In this document: positions 6,120-17,850 of the stretch, piece by piece
How positions within the stretch are numbered: the stretch's first letter is position 1
How the letters are laid out: the number at the start of each line of letters is the position of its first letter
From: Coriobacteriales bacterium
GTDB lineage: Bacteria; Actinomycetota; Coriobacteriia; Coriobacteriales; UBA8131
Direction of reading: 5' to 3'
Assembly: GCA_031263105.1 (NCBI GenBank)
Contig: JAISGJ010000070.1
Coordinates: forward strand, 1-36,594
Length of the DNA stretch: 36,594 bases
Position numbers and translations under genes: made by a program
The notes under the pieces: model-generated
Seen by the model: the letters and a program-made list of their open reading frames with translations, nothing else
Database searches by the model: none
What the model was told of the DNA's origin: nothing

Positions 6120-6143
6120 GTTAGTTATGATAGACTAACTTAT
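6120..6143. promoter_or_regulatory. Putative DtxR/IdeR-family metal-repressor operator
   Basis: TTATGATAGACTAACTTAT (6125-6143) matches TTAGGTTAGCCTAACCTAA at 14/19 positions. It overlaps the dyad GTTAGT-N8-ACTAAC and lies upstream of the AraC gene of an Fe-chelate uptake cluster. Confidence 0.5.
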
Positions 6144-6219
6144 GGATACTTCCGGAGGCCGGAGGCCTCGCCAGCGTGAAGAGCGAAAAGGCACCGGTTG
6201 GGGACGTTGGAGAGTGAGT

Positions 6220-7104
6220 ATGACCGTAGACACAGACGAGCTTGCTGAGTACTATGCCAGCACCCAGCCGTCTTTGTGCGACGCGTATGGAGGGGTCGTG
6301 CCGCCAAGGACGGATTTTTCTGACCCTATCACCAGTCCGGTGGGCAGTGGGCTTGTCATACCGCTGCTCGGCAGGGCGCACTATGTGCTCGATGGGGTGC
6401 CTTACGAGCTTAAGCCGGGGGTCGTCCTGCACGCTGGGGCTGCCATGAGCCTGGAGAAGCGGGTTGTGGGTGACGAGGCATGGGCCTGCGTCCTGGTGCA
6501 CTACCGCATCCCCACAGCCGACGAGGGCGGCTTTCCTCTCTACAACTCGCACTTCTGCATCGAGACCGGTCCTGCCATCCGCTTGCAGGAGAGGGCACGA
6601 TGCCTCCACACGAGCGAACGTGCCGACGGGCATCTGGCGTCGTTGCGGTCGCGGGCCCTGTTCGCCGATCTGATCGGGGAGGTGGTGTCGGCGGCGCAGC
6701 GTCACGGCCAGACCGACGAGAGGCTGCTCATGGACGATGCCCTCGCCTTCTTGGGCAGTCACTATGCGGAGGATATAAGCGTCCAGCGGCTCGCGGCCCT
6801 CTACGGGATGAGCGCCAGGCACTTCGGCTACCTGTTCTCCAAGCACGTCGGGGTGTCCCCGCTGCGCCATCTCACCGACCTGCGCATACGCCAGGCCAAG
6901 GAACTGCTCGCCACGGGCCTGTACAGCGTGGGGCAGGTCGCCCAAAGTGTCGGCATCAATGACAGCTACTATTTCAGCCGGCTGTTCAAAAAGCATACGG
7001 GCGAGCGGCCAAAGGCCTTCAAGGAGCTTCGGATGCGCACAGGGCACGGTGGAGATGCAAAGCACGGTGGGCACGGTGGGCACGCAGGGCACGGCGAGCG
7101 CTAA
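6220..7104 (+). CDS. AraC-family transcriptional regulator with His/Gly-rich C-terminal tail
   Basis: N-terminal cupin-like region and AraC double HTH (LAALYGMSARHFGYLFSKHVGVSP...VAQSVGINDSYYFSRLFKKHTG). GGAG precedes ATG 6220; ATG 6142 overlaps the operator-like site. Confidence 0.92.
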   Translation: MTVDTDELAEYYASTQPSLCDAYGGVVPPRTDFSDPITSPVGSGLVIPLLGRAHYVLDGVPYELKPGVVLHAGAAMSLEKRVVGDEAWACVLVHYRIPTADEGGFPLYNSHFCIETGPAIRLQERARCLHTSERADGHLASLRSRALFADLIGEVVSAAQRHGQTDERLLMDDALAFLGSHYAEDISVQRLAALYGMSARHFGYLFSKHVGVSPLRHLTDLRIRQAKELLATGLYSVGQVAQSVGINDSYYFSRLFKKHTGERPKAFKELRMRTGHGGDAKHGGHGGHAGHGER

Positions 7105-7220
7105 GAACGCGAAAACGTCCATTCTCTGCGGGAATCCGTCCATTTACATAACGCCAGCTTCTTACTACACTGCCCTTACCCCGACCCATAGTCATACAAA
7201 CGTGACTCTTGTGCCATAGG

Positions 7221-7236
7221 GTTAGATAACTCTAAC
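7221..7236. promoter_or_regulatory. Dyad GTTAGA-TAAC-TCTAAC upstream of the transporter operon, possible operator
   Basis: Perfect 6-bp inverted repeat sharing GTTAG/CTAAC half-sites with the 6120 site, just upstream of the RBS of 7258. Confidence 0.4.
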
Positions 7237-7257
7237 AAAGGAAAGACGAGGGATCGA

Positions 7258-8295
7258 ATGAGTCGTTTTATCAGAGGTATGCTGGCTGCCCTGCTCGCGG
7301 CAGGGATGCTGGTGGGCTGCGCTGCGCCTTCGGAGCCTTCGGAGCAGGAGCCGCAGAAGCAAACGGCAGACGAGGGGCAGGCGACCGACCGGGCGGCGGC
7401 GCAAACGACGGCTGACGAGCAGACGCAGGAGGATGCGGCGGAGGATGCGACCGCCTGGCCACGCACCTATGTGGACGGGCTTGACAGAGAGGTTGTCATC
7501 GAGGCCAGACCCGAGCGCATCGTTGCGCTGCACTTCGGCTACTCGGAGTACCTGCTGGCACTCGGCATCACGCCCGTCGGCGTGGCGTCGCTGGCAAAGG
7601 CCCAGACCTTCAAGACCCTGGAGCCCTACAGCGCCGAGCTTGCGGCCGCCGTCGACGTGGGCGAGGTCACCGCCCCCGACCTGGAACGCATCCTGGCCCT
7701 GGAGCCCGACCTCATCATCGCGAGCCCGGGCGTGCACGACGATTCCGTAGAGGCGCTTTCGGAGATTGCGCCCACGGTCTTTAAGAAGAACTACACCGTT
7801 TGGAACGAGACCTTGGACGATTACGCACAGATGCTCGGACGCGAGAGCGAGGCGGAAAGCTACACCGAGAGCACCCAGGCAATCCTGGACACGGTTCGCG
7901 CCGACCTTGCCCCCCTCTCGGACAAGACCTTCCTCTTCCTGCGCCCGATGGGCAAATCCGTCTTCTATATCGCGGAATGGCCCGGCTACAGCTACCACTA
8001 CGACCGCGAAACGGGCTTTGGCCTGCTCGCGCCCGAGGGACTGCCGCAGGGCGGGGAACAGATAGCTCTTGAGGCCTTGGCCGCCCTTAACCCCGACTAC
8101 CTCTTCTTGCAGGACAGCGCCGAGAACGACCAGCAGGCCCTCACGGATCTGGAGTCCTCAAGCGTGTGGGCCTCCATCGCCGCCGTGCAGCAGGGCCACA
8201 TAGGCGAGTTGGATATCTCGGTGAACACCGAAAGCCCGCTGGCCGTCCGCCTGGCGGCCGAGCAGCTCACCGAGCAGGTCGAGGGCTGGGATTGA
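7258..8295 (+). CDS. Fe-siderophore/cobalamin-type ABC substrate-binding lipoprotein (FeuA/FhuD-like)
   Basis: Lipobox LVGC; PERIVAL, LLALGITPVGV, PDLERILALEPDLII, LSEIAPT and SSVWASIAAVQQGHI motifs. Confidence 0.92.
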   Translation: MSRFIRGMLAALLAAGMLVGCAAPSEPSEQEPQKQTADEGQATDRAAAQTTADEQTQEDAAEDATAWPRTYVDGLDREVVIEARPERIVALHFGYSEYLLALGITPVGVASLAKAQTFKTLEPYSAELAAAVDVGEVTAPDLERILALEPDLIIASPGVHDDSVEALSEIAPTVFKKNYTVWNETLDDYAQMLGRESEAESYTESTQAILDTVRADLAPLSDKTFLFLRPMGKSVFYIAEWPGYSYHYDRETGFGLLAPEGLPQGGEQIALEALAALNPDYLFLQDSAENDQQALTDLESSSVWASIAAVQQGHIGELDISVNTESPLAVRLAAEQLTEQVEGWD

Positions 8296-10064
8296 GCGCT
8301 TCCGAGCACAACGAGTCCGACGGACGCGGCGGACGCGGCGGACTCCCCAAGCTTCTTAGGCGCTTCGTCCGCTGCTACCGTCCGTACAAGGGGCTGTTCT
8401 TCCTCGACCTGGGCTGCGCGGCAGCTGTCGCGTGCCTCAGCCTGCTGTTCCCCTTTACCGTAAGCGGCATCGTCGACAGCCTGCTGCCCCAGGGCGAATG
8501 GACGCTGATCCTGATGGCCTGTCTCGGCCTCGTCGGCGTCTACGCGCTCAACAGCCTGCTCAGTTTCGTCGTCGGCTACTGGGGCGAGCGGCTGGGGCTC
8601 AACATCGAGACCGACCTGCGCCTGGAGGCCTACAGCCACCTGCAGAAGCTCTCGTTTCGTTACTTCGACAACAACCGCACGGGCAAGCTCGCCTCGCGCA
8701 TCTCCAACGATCTGTTGGACGTAGGCAACATGGTGCACTACGGTCCCGAGCACCTCATCATCGCCGTCAGCACCATACTGGGGGCGACGGTGCTGATGAT
8801 GCGGGTGAACGTCGCCTTGGCGCTCGTGATGGTAGCGCTGACCGTGGCCGTCCTCACCATCAACATCTACTTCATGCGCAGGCTGGTGGCGGCGCGCAAG
8901 CAGCTGTTCAACGCCATCGGGGGCCTCATGGCGCGTCTTGAGGACGGCATCGGCGGCATCCGGGTGGTGCAGGCCTTTGCCAACGAGGACTACCAGCAGC
9001 ACCTGTTCGCCCAAGACAACAGGCGCTTCGGCGAGGCCAAGATATCCGGCTTCCGCGACTTTGCCTTAAGCGAATCGGTGACCTCCCTGCTCACCAACCT
9101 GTTGCCCATCGCCGCCCTGCTCGGCGGCAGCTGGCTTGCGCTGAACGGCACCATGAGCAACGGTGACCTCTTTGGCTTCATCCTGCTCGCCAATGCGGTG
9201 CTCGTGCCCATCAGGCTGCTGGCGGCCTTCTCGGTGCGCTTCCCCAATGGGCTGGCAGGGTTCAGGAACTTCTGCGAACTGATGGACAGAGAGCCGGAGA
9301 TACAGGATGGACCCACTGCCAGCGACATCCGTATTGAGCGCGGGGAGGTGCGCTTCGAACAGGTGAGCTTTTCCTACGACAGCCAAAAGCCCGTGCTGCA
9401 AGGCATCAGTCTCACCGCCGCACCCGGCCAGACCGTGGCCTTTGTGGGCAGCTCGGGCTGCGGCAAGACGACGCTCTGTAGCCTGCTGCCCCGCTTCTAC
9501 GAGCCGAGTTCCGGGCGCATCAGCATCGACGGCGTTGACATTCGCGAGATGACGCTGACCTCGCTGCGCCGGCAGATAGGCATCGTGCAGCAGGACGTGT
9601 TCCTCTTCGCGGGCAGCATACGCGACAACATCCGCTTCGGTCGTCTCGATGCCAGCGACGAGGAGATATGGGAGGCCGCACGGCTGGCGCAGCTGGACGA
9701 GTTCATCGTCCAGCAGGCAGATGGCCTTGACACCGCCATCGGAGAGCGCGGCGTCAAGCTCTCGGGCGGGCAGCGCCAGCGTCTGGCCATCGCGCGCATG
9801 TTCCTCAAGAACCCGCCCATCCTGATACTGGATGAGGCGACCTCATCGCTTGACACCCAGACGGAGGCCGCCATCCAACAGTCCCTGGCACGCCTGAGCG
9901 AGGGGCGCACCACCCTGGTGGTGGCACACCGCCTGCCCACTGTCCGCAACGCCGACCGCATCTTCGTCTTGAGCGAGGGGCGCGTCGCCGAGCAGGGCGA
10001 GCACGGCTCGCTTGTCGCCCTGGGAGGCATCTACCGGCGACTCCACGCATTGCAGGCGGGATGA
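8292..10064 (+). CDS. ABC transporter, fused permease/ATP-binding (exporter fold)
   Basis: 6-TM domain plus Walker A GSSGCGKT, LSGGQRQR and LILDEATS. Likely TTG start at 8292 overlapping the upstream TGA. Confidence 0.93.
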   Translation: MSASEHNESDGRGGRGGLPKLLRRFVRCYRPYKGLFFLDLGCAAAVACLSLLFPFTVSGIVDSLLPQGEWTLILMACLGLVGVYALNSLLSFVVGYWGERLGLNIETDLRLEAYSHLQKLSFRYFDNNRTGKLASRISNDLLDVGNMVHYGPEHLIIAVSTILGATVLMMRVNVALALVMVALTVAVLTINIYFMRRLVAARKQLFNAIGGLMARLEDGIGGIRVVQAFANEDYQQHLFAQDNRRFGEAKISGFRDFALSESVTSLLTNLLPIAALLGGSWLALNGTMSNGDLFGFILLANAVLVPIRLLAAFSVRFPNGLAGFRNFCELMDREPEIQDGPTASDIRIERGEVRFEQVSFSYDSQKPVLQGISLTAAPGQTVAFVGSSGCGKTTLCSLLPRFYEPSSGRISIDGVDIREMTLTSLRRQIGIVQQDVFLFAGSIRDNIRFGRLDASDEEIWEAARLAQLDEFIVQQADGLDTAIGERGVKLSGGQRQRLAIARMFLKNPPILILDEATSSLDTQTEAAIQQSLARLSEGRTTLVVAHRLPTVRNADRIFVLSEGRVAEQGEHGSLVALGGIYRRLHALQAG

Positions 10065-11152
10065 TGAGGAAGGCGGGCGGGGCGGCTGCCTCCAGCGGCG
10101 GCGGCGCAGCAGAAAGCGTGGACAGCGGCATAAAGGCCGCTCGACCGCGTCTCAGCGGCCACCCCCGCATAGCCCTCGCGCTCATCGGCGGCGGGGCGGT
10201 CGTCCTTGTGGCGACGATGGCCTTCTCGCTTTCCCAAGGCTCCTCCAGCGTGCCCCTGCAAACGGTGCTCGACGCCGTGTTCTCCTTCGACCCTTCCCAG
10301 CTCCAGCATCAGGTCGTCATCGACCTGCGCCTGCCCCGCGTCCTGGCAAGCGCACTGGTGGGCGCCTCCTTTGCGGTGGCGGGGGCCATCATGCAAGGCA
10401 CGACGCGCAACCCTTTGGCGGACTCGGGCATCATGGGGCTCAACGCCGGCGCGGGCTTTGCCATCGCCGTCTGCTACGCCTTCTTCCCGGGCTTAAGCTA
10501 CCTGAGCTTGATACTGATGTCGTTCCTCGGGGCGGCGATGAGCACGGGGCTGGTGATGGGCATAGCCTCGCTGCGCGGCGGCGGCAACCATCCCATGCGG
10601 ATGGTGCTGGCAGGAGCAGCGGTCAGTGCGCTTTTGGCGGCTCTTGCCCAAGGCATCGCGCTGTACTTCGACGTGGCCCAAGACATCATGTTCTGGACGA
10701 CGGGCGGCGTGGCCGGCTCCAACTGGGAGCAACTGCGCATCATGGCCCCCTTCGTCCTGCTGGCCCTGCTTGCGGCCTTGGCCCTTTCGCGCTCGGTCTC
10801 CCTCCTGAGCCTGGGCGAGGATGTCGCCCGAGGCCTGGGGCTCAACACCCTGGCAGTGAGCGTGCTTTGCGCCGTGGTGGTGCTGGTGCTGGCGGGGGCC
10901 TCGGTGGCGGTGGTGGGCGCCGTGGGCTTTGTGGGCCTGGTCATCCCCCACCTCGCACGCTTTGCCGTAGGGATGGACTACCGTTGGATCATCCCTGTGT
11001 CGGCGGTGCTCGGCGCTCTGCTCGTGGTGCTGGCCGACCTGGGCGCGCGCATGCTCAACCCGCCCTTCGAGACCCCCATCGGCGCCCTGATCGCCCTGAT
11101 AGGCGTGCCCTTCTTCCTCTACCTGGCCCGCAAGCAGAAACGGGCGCTGTGA
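10061..11152 (+). CDS. FecCD-family iron-chelate ABC permease
   Basis: LRLPRVL, MQGTTRNPLADSGIMG, LGEDVARGLG and GFVGLVIPH motifs. Confidence 0.95.
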   Translation: MMRKAGGAAASSGGGAAESVDSGIKAARPRLSGHPRIALALIGGGAVVLVATMAFSLSQGSSSVPLQTVLDAVFSFDPSQLQHQVVIDLRLPRVLASALVGASFAVAGAIMQGTTRNPLADSGIMGLNAGAGFAIAVCYAFFPGLSYLSLILMSFLGAAMSTGLVMGIASLRGGGNHPMRMVLAGAAVSALLAALAQGIALYFDVAQDIMFWTTGGVAGSNWEQLRIMAPFVLLALLAALALSRSVSLLSLGEDVARGLGLNTLAVSVLCAVVVLVLAGASVAVVGAVGFVGLVIPHLARFAVGMDYRWIIPVSAVLGALLVVLADLGARMLNPPFETPIGALIALIGVPFFLYLARKQKRAL

Positions 11153-12204
11153 TGGGCGCTGTGGTGCCGTCGCCCCCGCACCAGGCGCAACGTTACAAGC
11201 GCAGGCTCCTCATCCGCAACACGGTCATAGTCGCGTCCTTTGCCCTGGTGCTGCTGGCAGCGCTTGCCCTGAGCATGAACTCCGGTTACACCCGCCTGCT
11301 GCCAGGCGACATCGTGCGGATACTGCTCGGCGGCGGCACGCGACAGGAGAACCTCGTCCTCCTTGACTTCAGGCTGCCACGCATCGTCCTGTCGTCCCTG
11401 GTCGGCATGGGGCTTGCCTGTTCGGGCTGCATCATCCAGGGCATCTCGCGCAACGGGCTGGCCGATCCCGGCATCCTGGGCATCAACGCCGGGGCCGGCC
11501 TGATGGTGATCCTGTACGTGCTGCTCTTTGGGACGACCTCCTTCCTCGCACTGTTCACCCTGCCGTTCCTGGCGCTTGTGGGGGCAGGGGCCGCAGCCGT
11601 CGTCATCTATCTCATCGCCTTCAAGCGCGGCGAGGGCGTGGCTCCCATACGCCTGATAATCTCCGGCCTGGCCATGCAGGCGGGCATCGTCGCGCTCACC
11701 ACCCTCCTCGTGGTCAAGCTCGACGAGACGCAGTTCGACTTTTGGGCGACCTGGGAGGCCGGCAGCATCTGGGGGTCCAATTGGAAGTTCGTTCTGACCC
11801 TCCTCCCCTGGCTGCTGGTGCTGCTGCCCTATGTGCTGAGCAAGGCGCGCACGCTCGACATCCTCAACATGGGCGACGACACGGCCTCGGGGCTGGGCGT
11901 GCCAGTGGAGCGGGAGCGCCGCAGGCTCCTCGCTGTCTCTGTGGCGCTTGCAGCCACCTGCGTGGCGGTGAGCGGCTCCATCAGTTTTGTGGGGCTCATC
12001 GCCCCGCACCTGGCACGGCGTCTGGTGGGACCACGTCACGCCATTCTGCTGCCCACCTGCGCCTTGGCTGGAGCCGTGCTGCTCACCGTGGCGGACACCA
12101 TCTCACGTGTCGCCTTCCAGCCGAGCGAGATACCTACCGGCATAGTGGTCGCGGTGGTAGGTGCCCCCTACTTCCTCTACTTGCTGGCGACGAGCAGGCA
12201 ATGA
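11152..12204 (+). CDS. FecCD-family iron-chelate ABC permease (second subunit)
   Basis: FRLPRIV, QGISRNGLADPGILG, GDDTASGLG and SFVGLIAPH motifs; ATG 11152 overlaps the upstream TGA. Confidence 0.95.
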   Translation: MGAVVPSPPHQAQRYKRRLLIRNTVIVASFALVLLAALALSMNSGYTRLLPGDIVRILLGGGTRQENLVLLDFRLPRIVLSSLVGMGLACSGCIIQGISRNGLADPGILGINAGAGLMVILYVLLFGTTSFLALFTLPFLALVGAGAAAVVIYLIAFKRGEGVAPIRLIISGLAMQAGIVALTTLLVVKLDETQFDFWATWEAGSIWGSNWKFVLTLLPWLLVLLPYVLSKARTLDILNMGDDTASGLGVPVERERRRLLAVSVALAATCVAVSGSISFVGLIAPHLARRLVGPRHAILLPTCALAGAVLLTVADTISRVAFQPSEIPTGIVVAVVGAPYFLYLLATSRQ

Positions 12205-12254
12205 GCGCCGAGCCTGTCTCGCGCTCCGCGCCTCTGGCGTGGGATGCCCCGGGG

Positions 12255-12298
12255 CCCACCGCCCTCCGCATCCTGCCCCACCGCCCTCCGCATCCTGC
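12255..12298 (+). repeat. Perfect 22-nt tandem duplication in the intergenic spacer
   Basis: CCCACCGCCCTCCGCATCCTGC x2. Confidence 0.85.
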
Positions 12299-12331
12299 CC
12301 GCCCCTGCCAGCCGACGAAAGGACAAACGCG

Positions 12332-13144
12332 ATGTCGTGCATCGTAACCGAGAGACTGTCCGTGGCCTACGACCGCCGCCTGGTGGTCGACACCCTTGAC
12401 ATGCGGGTGCCCAAAGGCCGGATAAGCGTCATCATCGGTCCCAACGGCTGCGGCAAATCCACGGTGCTCAAGGCGGTGGGACGGCTGCTCAGGCCGCGTG
12501 GCGGTGCGGTCTACCTCAACGGCGATGACATCAGCTCGCTGCCGACCCGCGAGGTCGCCCGTCGAATGGCCATACTGCCGCAGTCGCCCCAGGCCCCGCC
12601 GGGCCTCACGGTGGGCGAGCTGGTGGGCTACGGGCGCTTCCCTCATCGGAACGGCCTCAAGCGCAGCACGGCACAGGACAGGCATGCCGTCAGCTGGGCC
12701 TTGGAGGCGACACGCCTGACCGAGTTCGAGACGGTGGAGATAGACAGCCTCTCCGGTGGACAGCGCCAGCGCGTCTGGATAGCCATGGCACTGGCGCAAC
12801 AGACCGAGGTCATCCTCCTCGACGAGCCGACCACCTACCTCGACCTGGCCTATCAGCTCGAGATACTCGAGTTGCTGCACCACCTCAACCGCACACAAGG
12901 CTGCACCATCGTCATGGTGCTGCACGACCTCAACCTGGCGGCGCGCTTTGCTGACCACATGCTGGCAGTCCGCGACGGCAGCATCGTCTGTCACGGCAGC
13001 CCGCACGAGGTGATGACCCCGCAGACGCTGGGGGAGACCTTCGGCATCCACGCCCACATAGCCGACGACCCCTGTACCGGTCGCCCTTCCTGCATAAGCT
13101 ACAGCCTGCTCGCGCAGCGCGAATGCAAGGAGCAGGCGTGCTGA
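12332..13144 (+). CDS. FecE/FhuC-like iron-chelate ABC ATPase
   Basis: RBS AAAGGA before ATG 12332; GPNGCGKST, LSGGQRQRVWIAMALAQ, LLDEPTTYLD and VLHDLNLAARF motifs. Confidence 0.95.
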   Translation: MSCIVTERLSVAYDRRLVVDTLDMRVPKGRISVIIGPNGCGKSTVLKAVGRLLRPRGGAVYLNGDDISSLPTREVARRMAILPQSPQAPPGLTVGELVGYGRFPHRNGLKRSTAQDRHAVSWALEATRLTEFETVEIDSLSGGQRQRVWIAMALAQQTEVILLDEPTTYLDLAYQLEILELLHHLNRTQGCTIVMVLHDLNLAARFADHMLAVRDGSIVCHGSPHEVMTPQTLGETFGIHAHIADDPCTGRPSCISYSLLAQRECKEQAC

Positions 13145-13833
13145 GGGGAGACGACAGAACGCCCGCCGCAGCGGCACAACCGGCCTTACGGCCGACGAAC
13201 CATTGTCCCCTGCACACCGCCTTGGCCCTTTCCGTGGCGGTCGAGGGGCTCTCCACGCTGGTGGTGGGCTCGGGCGAGTGCGGCTCCTATGGTCACAAGG
13301 TGGTGCAGGCGCACGGCAGCGCCTTGCAGGCAGAGGGCGGCGGTGGGACGGCGGGGCGGGGCAGGGCCCGTACAGCCCTGCGTACAGCCCTGCACTGGTT
13401 TTACGTGCTCGACGAGCAGGAGGTGGTGTTCGGCTGCCGGGAAGGAGTGACGGCCGCCCTCGAGGAGATGAGCGGGAGCGGGGCGGGCGCTATCCTCGTG
13501 ATAAGCACCTGTGTGGCCCACGTGGTGGGCGAGGACTTTGACGGCCTGCTCGGCGAACTCGAAGGGCGGCTCGACGCACGGCTGTTCCACGTGCCCCTGC
13601 CGCATTTTGAAGGGGACGGCCCCGAGGCCGGCTTCATCAAGAGCCTCGAGGTGCTGGTTCCCCATTGGACACGAAGCGAGCGCGGCAAGGATCTCATACG
13701 ACGCATCGAATCGGCGCCGTATGAAGAGATGAAGGCCGCCGCGCACGAGGTGACGGCCGCGCTTGCGGCCCACGGCAGCGCCTTTGAGACACCCGCAGCA
13801 GCGAAGGAGACACCGGATGCCCCTGTATCGTGA
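13138..13833 (+). CDS. Short nitrogenase component-1-like protein (NifD/BchN/CfbD-like, 3 Cys), ~231 aa
   Basis: NHCPL, GSGECGSY, DEQEVVFG and ISTCVAHVVGEDF parallel the NifD Cys62, Cys88, EKDIVFG and Cys154 motifs. AAGGAG precedes GTG 13138. Confidence 0.8.
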   Translation: MLRGDDRTPAAAAQPALRPTNHCPLHTALALSVAVEGLSTLVVGSGECGSYGHKVVQAHGSALQAEGGGGTAGRGRARTALRTALHWFYVLDEQEVVFGCREGVTAALEEMSGSGAGAILVISTCVAHVVGEDFDGLLGELEGRLDARLFHVPLPHFEGDGPEAGFIKSLEVLVPHWTRSERGKDLIRRIESAPYEEMKAAAHEVTAALAAHGSAFETPAAAKETPDAPVS

Positions 13834-14619
13834 GATGCCCCCGCCGACCAGCCGCATGAAGATGCTCTGGGCACTCGCAGGCGTGCGAGGCGCCTTGGTC
13901 CTCGAATACGGCTGCGAGGGCCATATGCTGTACGCCCAGAGTTTCCATGAGCGCGTCGGGCTTGAGAGCGAGGCGCGGCGGCTGCGTTCCACCCATCTTG
14001 AGAATTCCGATATCGTCTTTGGCGGCAGCACGCGCCTCGAAGAGGCTTTGGCGGAGCTGGTCGAGGGCCCTGCGGACACAGGCACACAGGCCGTCTTTCT
14101 GCTGCCTTCCAGCGTGCCCATGGTGATCGGCTTCGACCTTCTTGCCGTTGCCGCCGAAGCACAGGAGCGCTGGCCCGAGCTGCCAATCATCGCACTGGAT
14201 GCCGGGGGCTTCGGCGCAGCGCCGGCCTACGGCACCGAGCAGGCCCTGCTTGCCCTGGCCCGTGGTCTGGCACACGACACGATGCGAACCGAGGGGCCGA
14301 GCGCCAACATCATCGGCATCTGCTCGGAGCCCTTCGGCCCCCGCACCGACACCACCGGGCTTATCGCCCGACTCCGCAGCTCCTTCGGCCTCGATGTGCT
14401 CAACGTGATGACGGCCGACTGTTCGGTGCAAAGCCTCAACGGCATGGGTGCGGCACACCTCAACCTTGCTGCAGGCACCGAGGCCCTCGCCTGTGCCCGC
14501 TACCTCGAACAGCGCTTTGGCACCCCTTGGGTATCGTGTTCCACCGAAGGCGCCCTGCATGAGGGCGTCTTCGAGAACAGAGATGACATCTATAAGGCAC
14601 TTGAGAGAAAGGTAGACCC

Positions 14620-14623
<4 letters not shown>
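13817..14623 (+). CDS. Short nitrogenase component-1-like protein (NifK/BchB-like partner), ~268 aa
   Basis: STHLENSDIVFGGSTRLEEAL, PSSVPMVIGFDL, ANIIG, AHLNL and ARYLEQRFGTPW motifs of the component-1 fold; AAGGAG before ATG 13817. Confidence 0.8.
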
Positions 14624-16619
<1,996 letters not shown>

Positions 16620-17045
16620 ATAAAAGGTTTGGGCGAAACCACACGGGAAGACGGCCCAGGCAGTGCGGTAAGGGAGCAAGAAATAAACACAGGGACGACA
16701 GAGAAGGGCACGTTGCCTCGCGCCATCAGGCGAGCGGGCAGAACTGCGCTGTCGCCCCTTGTGGCAGGCATGACGAATCTCCCGTCAGCTGCGCCAGCAG
16801 GCGCTCACATACAAATAGGAGGGAGGGGGGCGTTTTCGTGGAGAAAACGGCTGGTAATGTAACCACCCCCTCACCGGCTTCTGGCACTGACGTAAGATCT
16901 TATCCAAAACAGCAGAGCTCGAGCAGGGCCCCTCCGGTGCAGGAGCAACAGACGCCAACTCTTATCACAAACCGAAAGCTGCACGGAGACGGTCTGCAAA
17001 AGGCATGCCGCTCGCAGCCAACAGATTCACAGAACGGAGAACAGA

Positions 17046-17393
17046 ATGGATGGCAGGATCAACGACCTGCAACAGACCGCAGGCAAGATACAGAATACGT
17101 ACAGCAAGCTCATAGGGCCGATCATCTCGATCATAGTTCCTATCGCACTTCTCGCTATAGTGGTCTACATCACACTCGGCGGCGCCTTCGACGTCGGTGC
17201 CCTCGCTAACGAGAACGGCGTCGTGCGCATCCCTGTGGTGTTTCTTTTCATCGCCCTGCCCATCGGCTGGCTGATCGACGCCGTGGGCGTCACTGCGGGC
17301 CTGTCCATCATAAGCGCAGTGTTGGGACTCTGGCTCATAGGCGGTATCTTTGGTTTGAGAAAAGCGCTGAAGGGCCTGAAGTCAGCCAGGTAG
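17046..17393 (+). CDS. Small hypothetical membrane protein (about 3 TM)
   Basis: GGAG RBS, three hydrophobic stretches and a basic C-terminus. Confidence 0.65.
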   Translation: MDGRINDLQQTAGKIQNTYSKLIGPIISIIVPIALLAIVVYITLGGAFDVGALANENGVVRIPVVFLFIALPIGWLIDAVGVTAGLSIISAVLGLWLIGGIFGLRKALKGLKSAR

Positions 17394-17670
17394 CTACAGC
17401 TCACACCCCACTGTCATTTCGAGCCCCGCCGAGGAATCCTTGGGTCCGAGTGCCCGGAAAACGCACCGCGTTTTCAGCGAGGACGGCGCGACAGTCCAGT
17501 GGACTGTCGCGGGGCGAAGCTGCGAAGCAGCGGGTGAGCCCATGGAACCGACAGGCCCACGGATCACGCAGTGTCCAACGGCAGGTCGGGGGGCCCTTCG
17601 ACCTGCGGTCGACCGCTGGCGCGGTCGAAGATTCCTCGACAGGCTCGGAATGACAGTGGGGGTGTGAACA
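17392..17670. mobile_element. Palindromic MITE/REPIN-like element, copy B
   Basis: Terminal inverted arms TCACACCCCACTGTCATTTCGAGCC...GGAATC / GATTCCTCGACAGGCTCGGAATGACAGTGGGGGTGTGA; core shared with copies C and E. Confidence 0.8.
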
Positions 17671-17850
17671 CATATGACCTGACGGCCCGGATCTGCCTGC
17701 GCGATCCCTTGCGTGCAATCTGCGGCGGATACCAGTACAATGGCTGTTGACAGGGAAGCGCGGGGCCAGAGGCGGTGCCATCGGCTCTGAGGGTCGGCGC
17801 TTCCAGAATAAAGGCGACACAACGCAGTTCAAACGTACACGGAGGTCTCC

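Follow-up and report, generated by a model that had tools for sequence, protein, structure and literature searches.

In dark-operative protochlorophyllide oxidoreductase (DPOR), the subunits BchN and BchB hold one asymmetric [4Fe-4S] cluster with three cysteines from one subunit and a non-cysteine ligand, an aspartate, from the other, and the enzyme uses an ATP-dependent Fe protein without a complex cofactor. CfbD, the Ni-sirohydrochlorin a,c-diamide reductive cyclase of group IV-B, is likewise small, contains only a [4Fe-4S] cluster and no NifB-dependent cofactor, and forms a homomer whose cluster is symmetric, with three domains in about 350 amino acids (aa) or more. To our knowledge, the subunits of every characterised catalytic component of the nitrogenase superfamily (NifDK, NifEN, DPOR, COR, CfbD, MAR) comprise three domains. 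According to a 2026 review (PMC13474568), gene context has been of little help for the uncharacterised groups of nitrogenase-like (NFL) proteins, among which it lists several clades of group IV as well as group VI. Passages of Dos Santos et al. (2012; PMC3464626) describe NifEN-like genes of C. botulinum and A. oremlandii (CLM_0808/0809, Clos_0313/0314) that follow genes for NifH and an ABC ATPase and encode three P-cluster-type cysteines in the alpha-like subunit, none in the beta-like subunit and no FeMo-co ligands; the same passages draw the DPOR analogy for related clades. Here we describe a pair of adjacent component-1-like genes, D-short (231 aa) and K-short (268 aa), in the 36,594 nucleotides (nt) of contig JAISGJ010000070.1 of a Coriobacteriales bacterium (GCA_031263105.1), hereafter the window. 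We tentatively read the pair as a reduced derivative of an importer-linked NFL reductase that possibly still works as a single-[4Fe-4S] electron-transfer module, and give this reading a little less than an even chance.

D-short aligns with positions 1–143 of the PF00148 profile (75.5 bits, E 4.9e-21) and K-short with positions 7–223 (114.8 bits, E 5.5e-33), against about 399 profile positions in the full three-domain form and a gathering threshold of 28.6 bits, and neither protein has the full three-domain architecture. A preliminary description of this DNA had called both proteins about half size, with D-short ending after domain I with a complete three-cysteine site and no FeMo-co ligand region in either protein. 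All of this holds: the profile coverage agrees with it, neither protein has domain III, and the coordinates, lengths and motifs given for the two genes are correct. D-short is made up of domain I followed by two tail helices and a disordered terminus. In its AlphaFold2 model (predicted local distance difference test, pLDDT, 80.4; predicted template-modelling score, pTM, 0.77), a four-stranded alpha/beta domain covers residues about 21–170 at pLDDT above 90, and helices at 181–191 and 196–211 follow at pLDDT about 76. The best structural matches, which span about 170–180 residues (domain I), are BchN (Z 16.4, root-mean-square deviation 3.8, 170 aligned), NifD (16.2) and NifE (16.2). K-short comprises domains I and II and a linker helix, and when aligned with full-length K it stops about 25 residues beyond FGTPW; its ESM Atlas model (pTM 0.84, pLDDT 0.80) superposes on a 402-aa Bacillota cluster with a template-modelling (TM) score of 0.85 over 254 residues. 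Compared with NifEN and NifDK, with which the pair shares the common fold and the alpha-subunit cluster cysteine positions, D-short lacks domains II and III and K-short lacks domain III; there is no P-cluster, the beta cysteines being absent, and no cofactor site of the alpha Cys275/His442 type. Similarly, BchN and BchB are full three-domain proteins around the tetrapyrrole, whereas domains have been lost here.

The genome is a fragmented bin of 250 contigs with 6.5% contamination and three component-1-like pairs, a setting in which collapsed paralogues or a chimeric contig could yield falsely short genes through assembly or gene calling. Against this, an independent 11,429-nt contig in run X1, which may be the source sample, is identical over 12900–16700. 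In sample X2, contigs of a related strain bridge the D/K junction (13207–14131, with 46 mismatches and 12 gap letters) and the junction between K and the substrate-binding protein (SBP) gene that follows it, SBP2 (14332–14723, with 31 mismatches). A short D (199 aa as called) and a short K (255 aa) also occur together on a separate 8,674-nt contig. An assembly error behind the short genes is unlikely, and we allow the artefact explanation as a whole only a very slight chance. The half size of the pair is a genuine, rare variant, and size is what is new here: our literature search, conducted largely at abstract level, found no report of short natural D/K forms.

The pair belongs to an uncharacterised NFL family whose genes lie in a Fec-type ABC importer operon in every locus found. 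Protein scans recovered 13 metagenome loci and 21 species-genome loci, the latter in Lacrimispora, Anaerocolumna, Hungatella, Mobilisporobacter, Hathewaya and other Bacillota, and all 34 share one layout: SBP, sometimes an exporter-type gene, two FecCD permeases, ATPase, NifH-like protein, D and K. Complete D proteins measure 422–441 aa in the metagenome loci (12/12) and 398–443 aa in the genome loci (18/18 complete genes, with two loci cut at the locus edge and L047 without a D match); K proteins measure 407–422 aa in 10 of 12 metagenome loci and 383–425 aa in all 21 genome loci. The two remaining metagenome K genes, a frame-broken one in L020 and one of 322 aa in L022, may be pseudogenes or sequencing errors, as may be the SBP, FecCD and ATPase genes of L030 on the Lacrimispora xylanisolvens chromosome, each of which was found in two tblastn pieces. 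Because the genes after K are unrelated in the six loci compared, K is the last gene of the module, which includes no maturase; no conserved maturase genes follow.

The window operon has the gene set of these loci (D/K, FecCD, ATPase, PF01497, NifH-like), and its ATPase is 65–70% identical to the ATPases of other loci of the family. D-short and K-short are 44–54% and 36–43% identical to family D and K, respectively, and both fall among family members in unrooted trees. The best sequence match of the family profile is NifE (E 2e-38), and D-short and K-short miss all nif, vnf and anf model cut-offs by hundreds of bits. K-short scores 50.7 bits against the DPOR model TIGR01278 (cut-off 490) and 20.3 bits against the CfbD model TIGR03282 (cut-off 268); D-short matches neither a DPOR model (threshold E 0.001) nor the CfbD model, and the locus further differs from CfbD in having two different subunit genes. 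The closest described system is the NifEN-like clade introduced above, to which the link rests on matching the published description and layout. The pair follows the clade in its cysteine pattern and its position among NifH-like and ATPase genes. It differs in size (D 231 aa against about 400–440, K 268 aa against about 383–425), in gene order (ATPase-D-K-SBP-NifH against ATPase-NifH-D-K) and in its Fe protein, which is a canonical-type NifH here.

A paralogous operon with full-length genes is present in the same genome on contig C221 (L003, L004, L050), with D of about 493 aa, counted from the first start, and K of 516 aa. Its order is SBP, exporter-type ABC gene, two FecCD genes, ATPase, D, K and NflH, and long low-complexity insertions are found within its K, which is also extended at the C-terminus by a Gly/Arg/Asp-rich stretch. 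The window's transporter proteins are conserved to the same degree as those of C221 (63–74%), D-short and K-short less so. A third set on contig C113 (L001, L002) comprises a NifH-like gene (TIGR01287, 405 bits) and a pair of full-length PF00148 genes below all nif/vnf/anf cut-offs, and represents a different NFL group.

All three predicted cluster cysteines of D-short, C23 (HCPL), C48 (GEC) and C125 (STC), are conserved in every family D sequence covering them (32/32, 36/36 and 36/36); in NifE and NifD, the aligned counterparts of C48 and C125 are the HGPxxC and xTC cluster cysteines. When the profiles of the D and K families are aligned with each other (probability 99.6%), C48 of D corresponds to His36 of K and C125 to Ser99, and the same offset places C23 at Thr11. 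The PTSR, EYGCEGH and PSSV sites of K-short had been proposed as the equivalents of the cysteine motifs, which this alignment bears out: K-short has no cysteine at any of the three canonical positions, and its sole cysteine in EYGCEGH (C33) sits three residues before the canonical one. Across the family, the C23 equivalent in K is serine in 21 of 22 sequences (Thr11 in the window), the C48 equivalent is His36 in 21 of 23, and the C125 equivalent is serine, alanine or threonine, with Ser99 in the window; Glu30 and Ser98 are invariant (n = 23), whereas a cysteine at position 33 occurs in only 8/23. His36 of K-short sits exactly at the NifK-Cys95/BchB-Asp36-type position, an equivalence we take from the review (PMC13474568). 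With Glu30 and His36 available in K-short, the DPOR-like scheme of three cysteines plus a non-cysteine ligand put forward earlier is a reasonable analogy, with histidine where DPOR has its aspartate; the DPOR cluster is established, and the one here is predicted. The three-versus-none asymmetry itself, noted in the preliminary description, is real at the locus and equally present in full-length family members. It is not new, having been published in 2012 for a family that, judged by description and layout, seems to be this one (Dos Santos et al., 2012, in the passages cited above).

Short D proteins form a lineage of their own. The nearest relatives of D-short are P0002 (199 aa as called, 94% identical over aligned residues), P0003 (187 aa, 58%), P0012 (187 aa, 56%, an N-terminal fragment) and P0004 (230 aa, 48%), encoded on contigs of 8,674, 5,865, 5,071 and 4,283 nt, respectively. 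In a representative search (131 matches in 1.84 billion), the three best hits measured 187, 230 and 187 aa, while 24 of the 27 proteins at ranks 4–30 had at least 390 aa, and two of the three shorter ones stop mid-domain like contig-cut fragments. A domain-I tree (140 columns, 36 sequences, with some long-branch representatives of a first tree left out) unites the five short D proteins in a single clade (Shimodaira–Hasegawa-like approximate likelihood ratio test, 99.9) with a long stem of 1.09 and inner branches of 0.3–0.8, much like full-length members, whose median end branch is 0.45. D-short keeps 41 of 47 family-conserved positions (at least 80% conserved among full-length members), which falls within the 81–98% kept by full-length members themselves. 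All five short D proteins read TCV[A/S]H in place of the full-length TCVPE, and four of the five lack the HFKC cysteine, which is present in 20 of the 36 sequences overall. Twelve differences separate D-short from P0002 over 199 residues, five of them in the Gly/Ala/Arg-rich loop 71–83, two elsewhere in domain I and five in the tail; the 12-letter gap of the X2 strain in D is in frame and equals the 4-residue deletion of P0002. A one-domain form of D maintained over time is well supported by these observations. A pattern scan of the species genomes for D-short gave no match.

The end of the short D proteins, D-A-[PST]-[VL], is the D-frame reading of a K start, ATG CCx CTx; this end is encoded by the overlapping K start, and therefore a K gene of the MPL... 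type follows each D-short. The tail of D-short may be derived from the GYER...LL..R helix at the C-terminus of full-length D, in which case an internal segment would have been deleted in frame; in the tail-helix comparison, P0003 matched L018 at E 0.002 in a tiny database, and the D-short tail of the window at E about 5. Within D-short, a Gly/Ala/Arg-rich insertion (residues about 60–85; 13315–13392) that does not occur in full-length relatives has low model confidence and contains the in-frame 12-nt indel between strains. In the ESM Atlas, the D-short model can be superposed with a cluster of 66 archaeal proteins of about 188 aa (TM 0.59 by query and 0.71 by target), and there are also clusters of 160–176-aa PF00148 proteins; these may be other stand-alone one-domain forms, or fragments.

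The history of K is different. Word-based searches with K-short returned only P0007 and full-length K proteins, with no short partner of P0003, P0004 or P0012. No K relative at E 1e-20 or better was found in a 400-genome sample of the same class beyond the window's own genome, and 34 genomes of the same family gave distant full-length matches only. P0008 and P0009 were considered as K partners of other D-short lineages and rejected: P0009 clusters with L046, whose D is full length. The comparison of homolog lengths suggested at the outset as a check for erosion thus splits between the subunits. For D it speaks for a maintained form, with the four closest relatives all short and domain I normally constrained, whereas the relatives of K, with one exception, have at least 383 aa.

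The Fe protein encoded at the end of the operon is a canonical-type NifH and not the family's own type. It has the P-loop and both cluster cysteine motifs, scores 440.2 bits against TIGR01287 (model positions 1–270 of 275), above the equivalog cut-off of 394.35, and matches C. pasteurianum NifH (1cp2) at 438 bits (E 1e-130), while family NflH proteins reach 274–335 bits in the four of four tested, below the cut-off of 394. It is also longer (274 aa against about 245–255 aa) and is 54–60% identical to family NflH proteins, which are 69–73% identical to each other. No canonical nifDK was found in the 86%-complete genome, in which the only PF00148 matches are the three NFL-type pairs.

The pair is housed in a ten-gene plus-strand operon (6142–16562; Table 1). 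D-short runs from GTG 13138 to TGA 13833, with AAGGAG at 13127–13132, 5 nt before the GTG, and overlaps at its start with the end of the ABC ATPase gene (stop at 13142–13144); K-short runs from ATG 13817 to TGA 14623, with GAAGGAG at 13803–13809, 7 nt before the ATG, starts within the D-short stop region, and overlaps the ATG of SBP2 (14620) with its stop. The ribosome-binding sites and coupled junctions reported earlier for both genes are accordingly present, as Shine-Dalgarno sites and as overlaps at both ends. SBP2, which lies between the K-short and NifH genes, has an LAAC lipobox in its translation and weak matches to the FecB, FhuD and FepB models. Promoter and terminator scans gave nothing above shuffles. 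After nifH, 16563–17850 is a lower-GC stretch without a family match in which no nifD-type remnant was detected; a 115-aa open reading frame within it (17046–17393) resembles a small membrane protein and has no Pfam match.

Table 1. Genes of the operon that carries D-short and K-short, and the palindrome preceding it (positions in the window).
Feature	Position	Strand	Evidence or location
19-bp imperfect palindrome	6125–6143		just before AraC regulator gene
AraC-family regulator	6142–7104	+	HTH_18/HTH_AraC match
SBP1, binding protein	7258–8295	+	PF01497
ABC exporter-type half transporter	about 8292–10064	+	PF00664 plus PF00005
FecCD-type permease 1	10061–11152	+	PF01032, E 1e-92
FecCD-type permease 2	11152–12204	+	PF01032, E 1e-92
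ABC importer ATPase	12332–13144	+	PF00005
D-short, nitrogenase component-1-like, 231 aa	13138–13833	+	PF00148
K-short, partner subunit, 268 aa	13817–14623	+	PF00148
SBP2, lipoprotein substrate-binding protein, siderophore/heme/B12 class	14620–15642	+	PF01497
NifH, canonical-type Fe protein, 274 aa	15738–16562	+	TIGR01287

The binding proteins of the window belong to the ferric-chelate/heme/B12 class, and the transporter context is of the iron type. In 316 kb from the 21 Bacillota loci, 13 Fur-box-like sites (at least 15/19) were found against 2.0 in shuffles, a count to be read with the relatedness of the loci, which are not independent. Ten of the 13 (15–18 of 19) precede the first SBP gene by no more than 400 nt, six of them by 44–69 nt and the others by 120–247 nt. 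They occur in 10 of the 11 Bacillota loci with at least 400 nt of upstream sequence (L028, L035, L037, L039, L040 and L042–L046), and suggest iron control of the family. From the gene context, we infer that the family would serve iron acquisition through ATP-driven low-potential reduction of an imported iron chelate, with a siderophore more likely as substrate than heme and a corrinoid least likely. Our literature search, within the scope given above, returned no paper on Fur or iron control or on an iron-acquisition role of such NFL operons, and no Rfam riboswitch match, B12 included, was found in the window or six loci. The palindrome before the AraC regulator gene is identical in 17 of 19 positions to 11085–11103 of C221 and occurs nowhere else in the genome at 15/19 or better. 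As an IdeR/DtxR box (14/19) it was rejected, with 8 genome-wide matches at 14/19 or better against 14–19 in shuffles.

With this anatomy, family membership, conservation of D-short and transporter context, a heterodimer, its cluster, the electron flow and a substrate can be proposed. D-short would have arisen once: domains II and III would have been deleted in frame long ago, leaving the cluster-binding domain I with a helical tail behind it and preserving the overlap with the start codon of K, and selection would since have kept D-short in a small clade. Domain III of K would have been lost much later, in the lineage of the window, and the rearrangement that removed it together with the original Fe protein gene would have brought in SBP2 and the canonical-type nifH; the X2 strain has the same K/SBP2 layout as the window. 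D-short and K-short would pair via their domains I and hold one [4Fe-4S] cluster, ligated, as in DPOR, by C23, C48 and C125 of D and a non-cysteine residue of K, His36 or Glu30. NifH would dock on the cluster face and deliver single low-potential electrons at the cost of ATP, and a cluster without substrate-enclosing domains would only pass electrons outward, to an imported iron chelate or to another protein. The earlier idea of an open face for a bulky substrate is compatible with this anatomy.

Several observations weigh against a pair that still works, most of them on the side of K-short. The only other short K is P0007 (87% identical, 255 aa as called), the next relatives being ordinary full-length K proteins of 383 aa or longer. 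The stem of K-short and P0007 measures 1.41 against a median end branch of 0.15, and K-short keeps 45 of 67 conserved positions, below 19 of 21 full-length members. The 32 differences between K-short and P0007 show only mild avoidance of conserved columns (mean conservation of 0.56 against 0.64) and include changes at the invariant positions 218, 245 and 251. A rough ratio of nonsynonymous to synonymous change (dN/dS), estimated from amino-acid and mismatch counts rather than at codon level and assuming that X2 is the strain of P0002 and P0007, is about 0.3 for D-short and the first part of K-short and about 0.5–0.6 for the rest of K-short, which is below 1 but relaxed; taken by gene, the estimate is about 0.4–0.6 for K-short, with D-short lower. 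G+C content at third codon positions (GC3) is lowest in the operon for D-short (0.78) and K-short (0.76), with other genes at 0.80–0.86. Docking of NifH on the pair is uncertain, the Fe protein not being of the family type, and upstream of the window operon, of C221 and of four metagenome loci we found no Fur-like box, the best sites there (11–13 of 19) being no better than background. Moreover, we know of no characterised relative in which the lost domains do not form the substrate pocket, and the full-length paralogous operon could make the short copy dispensable. K-short looks the more degraded partner, and together with the mismatched Fe protein it makes a working reductase in this operon uncertain.

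Much of this would also suit decay in progress, in which the operon is now transporter-only with an orphan nifH, and K-short, perhaps also D-short, are non-functional leftovers whose frames are still open because clean deletions have so far been followed by no disruptive mutation. The accelerated change of K-short, with a third of the family-conserved positions lost, agrees with such a course, as do the stepwise truncation (D before K), the replacement of the Fe protein by a different type, the low GC3 of both genes and the full-length operon elsewhere in the genome. D-short agrees with it poorly, being a diversified clade (48–58% identity) with all cluster cysteines and normal conservation of domain I. 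In addition, the two strains, about 5–8% apart in DNA, show no frameshifts or stops and an indel that stays in frame, Shine-Dalgarno sites and overlapping junctions are intact, and both proteins are predicted to fold. We regard decay as rather unlikely, if a serious rival. The pair might instead have taken on a non-catalytic role as an Fe-S carrier, a sensor, or an adaptor for the paralogous full-length D/K or the transporter. Only the cluster-binding and Fe-protein-facing parts were kept, the change from TCVPE to TCV[A/S]H lies beside a cluster cysteine in all short D proteins, accompanied by loss of the HFKC cysteine in four of five, a long stem followed by normal rates fits a change of function, and a full-length system coexists in the genome; the short genes, however, still occupy the place of a D/K pair in the operon and are coupled like one, and we find this explanation quite improbable. 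We retain, tentatively, the reduced and possibly still working electron-transfer module. Its most far-reaching form is a naturally minimised enzyme made of a one-domain D and a two-domain K, with a [4Fe-4S] cluster bound by three cysteines plus histidine or glutamate on an open face, to which a canonical NifH and ATP would supply very low-potential single electrons for an imported ferric chelate, so releasing its iron; we offer it as a long shot.

If selection has maintained it in several lineages, a one-domain D would be the smallest natural unit that holds an inter-subunit cluster and faces an Fe protein, and would bear on the origin of the superfamily and on the engineering of small ATP-driven low-potential reductases. 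Should K-short instead be decaying, the locus would show the stepwise loss of such a system. If the minimised enzyme proved true, Fe-protein docking and the cluster module would work without substrate-enclosing domains, and the whole transporter-linked NFL family would be an ATP-driven iron-release system. The importer context, found consistently, provides a testable idea for the whole of this uncharacterised NFL family.

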